Made by a program: the position numbers. Positions 42,001-45,000 of a stretch of DNA of 64,000 nucleotides are shown in pieces. This stretch comes from Legionellales bacterium (lineage in GTDB: Bacteria; Pseudomonadota; Gammaproteobacteria; JABCZS01), in contig JBAZWD010000001.1 of the NCBI GenBank assembly GCA_041660525.1, positions 224,022-288,021 of the forward strand, in the 5' to 3' direction. The stretch's first letter is position 1, and each line of letters begins with the position of its first letter.

Positions 42001-45000
42001 TACAAGCCATGCAAGGCGCAATCTTTTTCTTCCTGCCTTCCATTTTATTATCCGGCTTCATGTTTCCTTTCGCAGGTATGCCACAATGGGCACAATTTAT
42101 CGGCAATATCTTACCGCTCACACATTTCTTAGTGATTGTGCGCGGGATTTTGTTAAAAGGAAATGGATTGGGTGATGTGATGCATGCACTGGTGCCGATA
42201 TTATTGTTTATGATAGTTGTTGTCTATATTGGTTTGAAGCGTTTTCGGCAGACGTTGGATTAGAGAGTTTTTTGGTTTTTTCAATAAAAGCATTAAATTG
42301 AGTAGTTAAGGTCTTTGGTATAGGTGCGGAACAAGTAGATGACCATACAAAGGAGGTGGTTCCTCCCATTGTTTGTAAACCGATTTTTGCTGGGGTATTA
42401 GCGGTTTCGGTATTTTCATTATTATCATCACCATCTTCTTCTTTATTTATTGTTAATAATTCTTCGCCGCTTTCAGCACCTAGAGAACCATTAACGCAAG
42501 AATTAACAACACCCAACAAAGTTTTAGATGATGGCAACTGTGGCTTTTCAATAAATTCAGCGATAGTCTTAGCCCGATGGGAAGCTTTTGTTAAAGAATA
42601 AAATGCTTCGGTTAATACTGAGAAGAATAAAGAAAAAGAAATGACGAAGTAGCCAGCGATGTTGCCAAGTAAATCTGTAAATACTTTTCTTAATTCATTT
42701 GCGCCTGGTAGAAAAGTCATCATTAAACCTATGATTGCTAAAACAGCAAATACCAAAGTTAATAAGGGGTTTTCTTTAAAGTATTTTTTAACAGAAATGC
42801 CTTGTTGAATTTGTTCAAGGGAAGTAAAGTACACTAATAAAGCATTACCGAGTGCAAATAGAAAAGAAAGAACAATAATAGGTGCGCCACCGCTCGCTAA
42901 AAATACGCCCATTCCCACCCATCCCAAACCAAAATTAACAGCAAAGTTAATGTATGCACATGTTTTAGCAAGATGAAATAAATAAGGATCTTTTTTTCTA
43001 ATCTTATCAAGATCACCCTCATGTACCATTTTCGCAAATCCATTTAACGCGGGAAAATAAATATTTTTTTGCTCAAAGCCGCTGAATATTCCACCTACGA
43101 TGGCTAAGACAACCCCGGCAATAATGGCATCATTATCCCAATTGTTGATTTCAGAAATGGTTTCTTTATCGGAAAATAATAAAATGATAAAACCCGCATT
43201 GGTAATGCCGGTGGTTACCATAAGGCTTAGCGTGAGGAAACTGATAAATTTTTTCAGTAATAAAGGATTATTGATTATGCTACTTAAAAGATTAGGATTT
43301 TCTTCTTCAGCAGGTAGGTATTGCGATTTAAGTAAATTTAACTCTGTAATACTAAATTCAAAAGTTTCATTGGCTTCTTCTTTTGCTTTATTAATGAGAC
43401 AAACGGTAAGCTTTTCAATATCAAGTTCAGCATTAGCTGAGTCGAAGATACCCCTTAGCTAAAACATATGTTTTTAGCTCTTCAGAGAATTCACTGTTTA
43501 GATATAAAAGAAACAAGTAAAAAGTGATAATAGCGCAGTCTTGTTGAATTTTTTGATCAAGATTACCTATGAATTTTAAAAGCTCTGAGACTTTTGCTAA
43601 CTCTTCACTCAGAGCAGCCTTTTTAGAATGCTCAAGCAATATAGAGTTAATAGCTACGAAAGTGGTTGCGAACATAATGTTTAAATTCTCGAAAATTAAA
43701 AGTAAATCGTTAAAAAACCGAATATAAACAAAGACTTATCGTCGTATGGCGACTAGGGCTGGGGTTGGAAATGGATGATTATGTATTAACTTCATTTTTT
43801 GTTCACAAATTAAACAGTTACTATGTAAGAATTACAAATTTGGGGGTGATTGTCAAGAGTTTTTATGCCCAGTTTTCAATTTTTAACTGCGGGACACGAG
43901 AAAATTCTTTTTGATTATTAGTGATCAATACAGCTTTTAAGTGCAGCGCGTGGGCAGCTATGATTAAGTCTAAGGGACCAATGGGAGTGCCGGCACGTTC
44001 AAGATGAGCGCGTATGTGTCCGTAATGTTGTGCGGCATTTTCATCGAAAGCGGCTATTTCCAATGGCAGTAGAAACTCTTCTAATGCGGCTTTATTTTTT
44101 TCTACATGCGTGCTTTTTTCAACACCATGCATCAATTCTGCTGCGGTGATAGAAGAAATGCCAATATCGCCTAGGCTAAATAAAGTGAATTTTTCCAGTA
44201 CTTTTTTAGGGTTTTTTTTAATAATATAAATACAGATATTGGTATCGAGCATGTATTTCATTTGAACAGATCTTCCCTGGTTTGTTCAGTAGCTTGGTCT
44301 CTTGTTTCCATAAAGTCGGGTGAGAATTTATTTAAGCTATTGAACAGGCATTCCCAAGGCTTGTCAATGGGAAGTAAAATTGTGGCATTACCTAGTTTTT
44401 TAATGAAAACTTCTTCGCCTTTAAAGCGGAATTCTTTGGGTAATCTTAGGGCTTGGCTTTGGCCGTTTTGGAATAGTTTTGCGGTTTTCATGAGGATCTC
44501 CTAAGTATATATTGTTTAGTATATACTTTTTATGAGGTAAAGTCAAAGATCTCTTATTCAAGATTTGAGCTCCCGTCCAAACGGGCTCCGGTCCTGCGGT
44601 TTCATTTTAGTGCTCGCAAGCTGCGCGCTAAAATAAAACCTCCGGCCACCCGTTTGGAATGAGATCCGATGCGCTGTGTTTAATGTCTATACCCTGAACA
44701 AAAACATTTTTTTTGCTCATAAATTCTTCATAAATTCTTAATTTTTGCTTCATAAATAAGCAATGTTTCTACATAAAATTTTTCTTGCATTGTTGAACCA
44801 CAATGGTACTATACGCGGTATGACTTAGTTTCGAATTTTTACTTAATAGGGAATATATTTTTACATGGATGCACAGGAATTAATCAATCGCTCTTATTCG
44901 GTGTTCAAAAATTATCATATCTTTATGAATCTCTATGCGTATCTTTGTGACAACAAAGGTTTTGCACAAAAAAAACGTTTGTACCCTTTGCTTGAAAAAC

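Follow-up and report, generated by a model that had tools for sequence, protein, structure and literature searches.

A probable programmed +1 ribosomal frameshift of prfB-like architecture at a sense arginine codon in a Legionellales membrane protein gene

In a 64,000-nucleotide (nt) stretch of a Legionellales bacterium metagenome-assembled genome (MAG) (GenBank assembly GCA_041660525.1, contig JBAZWD010000001.1, positions 224,022 to 288,021), hereafter the window, two overlapping open reading frames (ORFs) lie on the minus strand, ORF-A at 43675..43433 and ORF-B at 43443..42208 in window coordinates. From comparative sequence data we conclude that the two are quite probably one gene for a multi-transmembrane protein, translated by means of a programmed +1 ribosomal frameshift that is conserved.

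Read without a shift, ORF-A runs from an ATG at 43675 to a TAA at 43435-43433 and encodes 80 amino acids (aa); its codons 1-77 (43675-43445) would supply the N-terminus of the predicted full-length product. The second frame, which is +1 with respect to ORF-A, stays open from 43458, right after a TAG at 43461-43459, to a TAA at 42210-42208, a length of 417 codons. ORF-B, which has homologs P0002-P0010, occupies this frame from 43443 onward and comprises 411 codons plus the stop. ORF-A and the second frame overlap by 26 nt (43458..43433), a segment that includes GCTAAGGGG. The first ATG, GTG or TTG of the second frame is an ATG at 43221, preceded by 79 open codons that contain no start, and it is here that the public annotation begins a coding sequence (CDS) of 337 aa (43221..42208, minus strand; WC748_01380, which is P0001, 100% identical), a hypothetical protein of a Legionellales bacterium MAG. 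An earlier note on this sequence had described the split into two minus-strand frames, the 337-aa ORF, the 79 start-less codons and the 26-nt overlap, and our ORF scan agrees on each; the fused protein, there put at ~497 aa, comes to 488 aa (77 + 411) when counted. At an estimated stop frequency of ~0.07 per codon in this AT-rich DNA, a start-less open stretch of 79 codons has a probability below 1%, and similar stretches are found in other orthologs, where 35-108 start-less codons are open after the site and the motif L(T/A)xxLIN is conserved within them. Chance is therefore excluded as the source of the stretch.

The two-frame arrangement is conserved in ten distinct loci (the window, L001, L004, L005/6, L007, L008, L010, L011, L012/13 and L016), which come from independent assemblies (NCBI, JGI and Logan) of metagenomes from peat, soil and water and whose proteins share 23-45% identity with that of the window. 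In L001, which is syntenic with the window, a 79-aa ORF-A homolog overlaps a +1 ORF. ORF-A homologs of 79-118 aa stand at the same position in all nine other loci, and ORF-B always follows ORF-A in the +1 frame in the nine complete loci; L016 ends just past the shift site and does not cover ORF-B. P0002 (40% identity), the product of the L001 locus, was the sole homolog in a 5.8-billion-cluster database, and a HMMER profile run against 1.84 billion representative proteins returned only nine family members, of 56-469 aa, none of them a single-frame fusion. Searching GTDB genomes with a DNA pattern from the leader of the gene added one ortholog, L016, the other matches being two contigs already known and a chance match in Dialister, and a metagenome scan for further orthologs gave L001's contig again and nothing else. 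The public proteins of the family, of 337-469 aa, are all truncated or split fragments in need of reannotation, and the predicted true products would have ~465-552 aa.

At the junction of the frames, all ten loci carry a cassette with the consensus GCT-ArG-GrG-TrT-CTT-CG(A/C), written in the ORF-A frame. In the window it consists of a Shine-Dalgarno (SD)-like element, (T)AAGGGG, at 43451..43457 on the minus strand, a 3-nt spacer TAT at 43448..43450, which the E site would hold when the proposed shift takes place, and the shift site CTT CGA C at 43441..43447, where CUU (43447-43445) would occupy the P site and CGA (43444-43442) the A site. The junction reads GCT AAG GGG TAT CTT CGA C in the window and L010, GCT AAG GAG TAT CTT CGA C in L001, L011 and L016, GCT AAG GAG TAT CTT CGA A in L007 and L008, GCT AGG GGG TAT CTT CGA C in L004, GCT AGG GGG TAT CTT CGC A in L012 and GCT AAG GGG TGT CTT CGC A in L005. 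A purine hexamer (AAGGGG, AAGGAG or AGGGGG) stands exactly 3 nt before CTT in ten of ten loci, the spacer being TAT in nine and TGT in one, and L004 and L012 carry AGGGGG-TAT-CTT exactly. The P-site codon is CTT throughout; the A-site codon is CGA in eight loci and CGC in two, with the base to be skipped a C in all ten. Across 147 kb, both strands included, the pattern [AG]6-N3-CTTCG[AC] occurs ten times, at the ortholog junctions only.

The interval within which a shift is permitted in the window measures 23 nt (43458-43436), bounded by the +1-frame TAG at 43461-43459 and the zero-frame TAA at 43435-43433. Across loci the first zero-frame stop is met 2-16 codons past the arginine codon and the zero-frame tails are unconserved, and CTT-CGN is the sole conserved slippery element in the shared interval. 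The sequence flanking the cassette is likewise unconserved, and a comparison of the orthologs found neither a downstream stimulatory structure nor a conserved flanking RNA structure at the shift site, as would be expected of a signal of the release factor 2 (RF2) type; the small hairpin that the window has at 43440-43427 lacks conservation.

When the nine complete fused genes are aligned by codon, the cassette stands out as the 18-nt block with the highest nucleotide conservation in the gene, with a mean pairwise identity of 0.88 vs. a gene mean of 0.48. The site leucine is encoded by CTT and the site alanine by GCT in nine of nine genes, and codons are mixed in four of the five other invariant leucine columns and in the other invariant alanine column. 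CTT makes up 9% of leucine codons in the window, and CGA is its fourth rarest sense codon (3.5 per 1000; 8.9% of arginine codons).

We infer that ribosomes shift frame within this cassette, and at the following codon. Having started at ATG 43675 and translated 77 codons of ORF-A, a ribosome would hold CUU (Leu) in the P site and the slow, rare arginine codon CGA in the A site, with AAGGGG, 3 nt upstream, paired to the 3′ end of 16S rRNA. Peptidyl-tRNA-Leu would then re-pair from CUU to UUC, skipping C 43444, as at prfB, and decoding would resume in the +1 frame at GAC (43443-43441). The shifted product would have 488 aa and the junction ...LAKGYL/DSANAELDIEK... (the slash marks the change of frame), with a predicted tryptic junction peptide GYLDSANAELDIEK, and ribosomes that do not shift would terminate three codons later and yield only the 80-aa peptide. 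By the wobble rules, the P-site tRNA should be able to pair in the +1 frame, as tRNA-Leu with anticodon GAG would form G:U, A:U and G:C pairs on UUC; there are no tRNA genes within the 64-kb window. CGA and CGC are read by tRNA-Arg(ICG), and CGA is decoded slowly through its inosine:A wobble pair. In Salmonella, the same inosine tRNA takes longer over CGA than over CGU or CGC (PMC4046918).

The earlier note had left the choice between a pseudogene, a sequencing error and a programmed slip, and had placed the frameshift near a C4/G4 run. A 1-nt indel in the G4 run, whether in a pseudogene or as a sequencing or assembly error peculiar to this MAG, would draw on the homopolymer in the overlap, on the indel errors that MAG assemblies do carry and on the truncated 337-aa CDS of the public annotation. 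However, the same +1 split recurs in the nine other loci, which stem from separate projects (NCBI, JGI, Logan), and in five of these nine the run is GGAG, not a homopolymer, with the split identical. L001 and L002, deposited separately in JGI and Logan, are identical over the ~1.75-kb gene region compared, and no intact single-frame homolog turned up in the 1.84 billion representatives, nor was an intact single ORF, which the note had proposed to look for, present in any ortholog, all loci being split. Between the window and L001 the neighbouring genes have a synonymous divergence (dS) of ~1.2, at which a dead gene would be expected to have gained stops and out-of-frame indels; both frames are still open, all alignment gaps are in frame, and the uncorrected ratio of nonsynonymous to synonymous differences (pN/pS) is 0.4-0.7, with similar values for ORF-A, the linker and the rest of ORF-B (the transmembrane core). 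The comparative data effectively refute an error or a pseudogene, to which we give next to no probability, and what they support among the three options is the programmed slip. The G run near which the note had set the frameshift is on this evidence an SD-like stimulator and not the site of an indel, and the slip likely occurs 3 nt downstream of it, at CUU-CGA.

It is also unlikely that ORF-A and ORF-B are two separate overlapping genes, with ORF-B initiated independently, either from a canonical or near-cognate start or through termination-reinitiation, and with the conserved block reflecting dual coding plus a ribosome-binding site. Gene callers did assign ORF-B starts in L001 (ATG), L004, L005 and L007 (TTG), the conserved purine block resembles a ribosome-binding site, and within ORF-A itself a hydrophobic motif, SFYLFLxYLN, is conserved. 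Nevertheless, five of the ten loci (the window, L010, L011, L012 and L016) have no +1-frame ATG, GTG or TTG between the upstream stop and the site, and the next start comes 27-102 codons downstream (74 in the window), a position inside the first transmembrane helix in the window and its closest relatives. The annotated 337-aa CDS accordingly begins within that helix, and L004 has a valine in place of this conserved internal Met (Met 43221 in the window). Because P0002 aligns upstream of Met 43221, with homology that extends through the first transmembrane helix, the alignment indicates that ATG 43221 is not the real start and that the annotated CDS is truncated. The starts that do exist elsewhere vary in type and position and all lie upstream of the SD-like element, which cannot serve them; L008 has a further, uncalled +1-frame ATG. 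The sole conserved +1-frame codon after the SD-like element is an AUC only 1 nt away, too near for initiation, and no conserved stop-start overlap was found among the loci. Separate genes would also leave the invariant rare CTT and the invariant skipped C unexplained. The earlier note had envisaged two genuine genes with their own starts in orthologs: two ORFs are indeed what the orthologs have, but the downstream one lacks a consistent start.

Two local features of the window were considered as start signals and rejected. The TAATG at the ORF-A stop could suggest stop-start coupling, and its ATG is in the wrong frame. An ATG at 43467 followed by an in-frame TAG could be a start lost to a nonsense mutation, which we rejected because other orthologs are also startless there.

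A recoding event of another kind, namely quadruplet decoding of CUUC by a special tRNA, a -2 shift or transcriptional slippage, seems to us quite improbable. The change of frame fits +1 and -2 equally, and an invariant skipped C is what quadruplet decoding would need. Against this, transcriptional slippage finds no conserved long homopolymer, the run being GGGG or GGAG depending on the locus, and an SD-like element exactly 3 nt before CUU is the signature of a P-site slip of the RF2 type.

Several observations count against a programmed +1 slip at CUU-CGA and temper our confidence in it. The UGA stop that is the defining slow step of prfB is absent. The A-site codon's slowness is not uniformly supported either, because two orthologs have CGC, a codon that is common in the window genome. 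Part of the conservation of the block would be expected from dual-frame coding as well. SD spacing is known to matter for frameshifting, and by our reasoning AAGGAG would pair best with the anti-SD in a register 1 nt away from that of AGGGGG in Escherichia coli prfB. In an AlphaFold model in which the ORF-A part had no alignment depth, this part has a predicted local distance difference test score below 50, and the model does not address whether the segments from ORF-A and ORF-B make up a single domain. Finally, all ten loci derive from uncultured MAGs or metagenomes.

The leader upstream of ORF-A is conserved to a greater degree than the gene itself, with ~90% identity between the window and L001 (L001 3954-4065) vs. 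~50% for the CDS. Its consensus elements suggest a promoter: a -35 hexamer TTGACA at 43851..43856 (minus strand), within a CTTGACA that is invariant in ten loci, and, 17 nt after it, an extended -10-like element TG-T-AATTCT at 43828..43836, where AAATTTGTAATyCT is conserved in the alignment. Downstream lies a short upstream ORF (uORF) at 43736..43795 on the minus strand, encoding MKLIHNHPFPTPALVAIRR and ending in CGA CGA TAA (43744-43736). The uORF has 16-22 codons, a conserved AAAATGA start and an invariant CGA CGA TAA end, and is in frame in ten of ten loci, since the distance from its ATG to the invariant CGACGATAA is 48, 51, 57 or 69 nt; it is presumably translated. A T-rich tract before the GAGA-type ribosome-binding site of ORF-A is present in most loci. 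A terminator scan of the stretch from the uORF to ORF-A found neither terminator nor antiterminator hairpins, RNAalifold predicted 0 conserved pairs in the leader, where single-sequence folds were weak and inconsistent, and there was no Rfam match in 42000-45500. In L001, the JGI and Logan annotations call an 80-aa ORF opposite the conserved leader (3812-4054, minus strand); since it spans the promoter and the uORF, this ORF is probably an artefact.

In having a short conserved uORF upstream with tandem codons for one amino acid, the leader resembles leader-peptide attenuators (his, trp and pheL; TnaC). It differs from them in that there are no terminator/antiterminator hairpins and only two regulatory codons, placed directly before the stop. 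Work by Hayes and colleagues from 2002 is said to have linked rare arginine codons before a stop to stop-proximal stalling. In a Salmonella his-leader assay, CGA-containing arginine pairs counted among the slowest pairs of codons (PMC4046918). The uORF may be a leader peptide that senses arginine or CGA decoding. Two independent conserved uses of CGA at speed-sensitive positions, in the A site and at the uORF end, raise the possibility, which we hold only tentatively, that the amount of full-length protein is tuned by the supply of Arg-tRNA or the speed of CGA decoding. An equally speculative extension would make the gene a two-tier sensor of arginine or CGA decoding, in which the CGA-CGA-stop leader gates entry and the CGA cassette sets the balance between the 80-aa and the 488-aa product.

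The predicted product of the frameshift combines segments from both ORFs. Its N-terminal region of ~140 aa is soluble and helical and contains the ORF-A-encoded SFYLFLxYLN and the ORF-B-encoded L(T/A)xxLIN; ORF-B encodes a 65-aa soluble linker, about six transmembrane helices and an acidic C-terminal tail. A Kyte-Doolittle scan of the fused protein gave 5-6 transmembrane segments between residues ~143 and 355, followed by the soluble acidic tail; the earlier note was right about the tail and had counted 6-8 helices. The motifs TNAGF, SGYAQKxIY, NFGLG and MTFYPG are conserved in the transmembrane core, and the variable tail carries the motif WSxTCSAP. Searches of Pfam, NCBIfam and PDB with the multi-transmembrane product gave no match. 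The earlier note had likened the protein to secreted effectors of intracellular Legionellales; the searches identified no family, fold or signal for it. The nonsynonymous divergence (dN) of the gene is ~5x that of neighbouring genes, and such fast evolution would fit a surface-exposed or host-facing role.

In all loci the gene lies between priA with a conserved hypothetical gene on one side and an ABC-2 operon on the other. The hypothetical protein, of 190-200 aa, is encoded at 44865-45437 on the plus strand of the window and at 3000-3605 (minus strand) in L001, the two being 78% identical; it has no Pfam match. Wherever a locus extends far enough, the hypothetical gene is transcribed divergently from the frameshift gene; its 3′ end overlaps the end of priA, and the protein may be a functional partner or regulator. 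At the opposite flank, the frameshift gene (stop at 42210-42208, minus strand) converges with the ABC-2 permease gene (41130-42263, plus strand), and in the window their 3′ ends share 56 nt; the same convergent overlap is only 4 nt in L001.

A vapBC pair adjoins the conserved promoter on its upstream side in the window (minus strand, 43863-44491). It consists of a MazE/AbrB-type antitoxin gene at 44258-44491 and a PIN-domain toxin gene (vapC) at 43863-44261, the stop of which is 7 nt from the -35 hexamer, and could read through into the leader. Since vapBC is absent from the loci checked (L001, L004, L007, L011 and L012), it appears by this comparison to be a window-specific insertion. On the other side, AAA-ATPase genes lie between the frameshift gene and the ABC-2 operon in L007 (7422-8864) and L011 (5124-6287), typed as ATPase_2/AAA_16 or as AAA_14 plus DUF4143. 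Together with vapBC, these insertions show that both flanks of the gene accept insertions. The earlier note had placed the gene in a non-housekeeping islet, a description that suits vapBC; the gene itself is a syntenic core gene of the clade.

The closest parallel to the cassette is the frameshift site of prfB. That site has an SD-like consensus AGGGGG, a CTT 3 nt downstream, a TGA and then a C, and an RF2-specific UGA or UAA stop is present in 100% of prfB sites (PMC12421855); for +1 shifts generally, the stimulatory SD sits 3 nt from the shift site (PMC5009743). In the present gene as in prfB, a short ORF1 precedes a long +1 ORF2, and a purine SD-like element stands at the exact 3-nt spacing before a CUU P-site codon; the spacer UAU is the same, the post-shift codon GAC is the same in six of ten loci, and neither has a downstream RNA structure. 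The L004 site, AGGGGGTATCTTCGAC, is one base off what we take to be the E. coli prfB site, AGGGGGUAUCUUUGAC, and the junction of the gene family here, ...A(K/R)(G/E)YL/D..., may be set beside what we believe to be that of E. coli RF2, ...LRGYL/DYD.... The two systems differ in the A-site codon, a sense arginine codon (CGA or CGC) here and UGA or UAA in prfB, in the slip, CUU to UUC here and to UUU in prfB, in the length of ORF1, 70-112 codons here and ~25 in prfB, and in the product, an orphan membrane protein here and not RF2; no prfB gene lies within the 64-kb window. Because the A-site codon is a sense arginine codon and not an RF2-specific stop, RF2 autoregulation is impossible for this gene. 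What we find, then, is the full stimulatory architecture of prfB in an unrelated gene, with a sense arginine codon in place of the stop.

Frameshifting at hungry codons offers a second comparison. Sites of the type xUU_CGN (UCC_UUU_CGN) direct +1 shifts in influenza A virus and in human PLEKHM2, and CUU_AGG_C does so in yeast Ty1 (the Ty1/ABP140 type). As in these, the P-site codon here ends in UU and would re-pair one base forward, and the A site holds an arginine codon, which in its CGA form may be slowly decoded; as in influenza A virus and PLEKHM2, the base to be skipped is the C of a CGN codon. The known sites, however, are eukaryotic or viral and need no SD:anti-SD pairing, whereas the cassette described here is bacterial and joins an rRNA-pairing stimulator to an arginine codon. 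To our knowledge, prfB is essentially the only bacterial chromosomal gene with conserved productive +1 frameshifting. According to a 2016 review, bacteria offered no known example of a trans-frame protein produced by way of hungry-codon frameshifting. Should the proposed arginine control prove true, this gene would provide the first natural example from bacteria of a trans-frame protein made by hungry-codon frameshifting under starvation. If the cassette works as proposed, the RF2 signal would be a portable module, the input of which can be switched from the level of a release factor to the supply of an aminoacyl-tRNA, and the family would provide a natural system in which to study hungry-codon frameshifting as a regulatory device.

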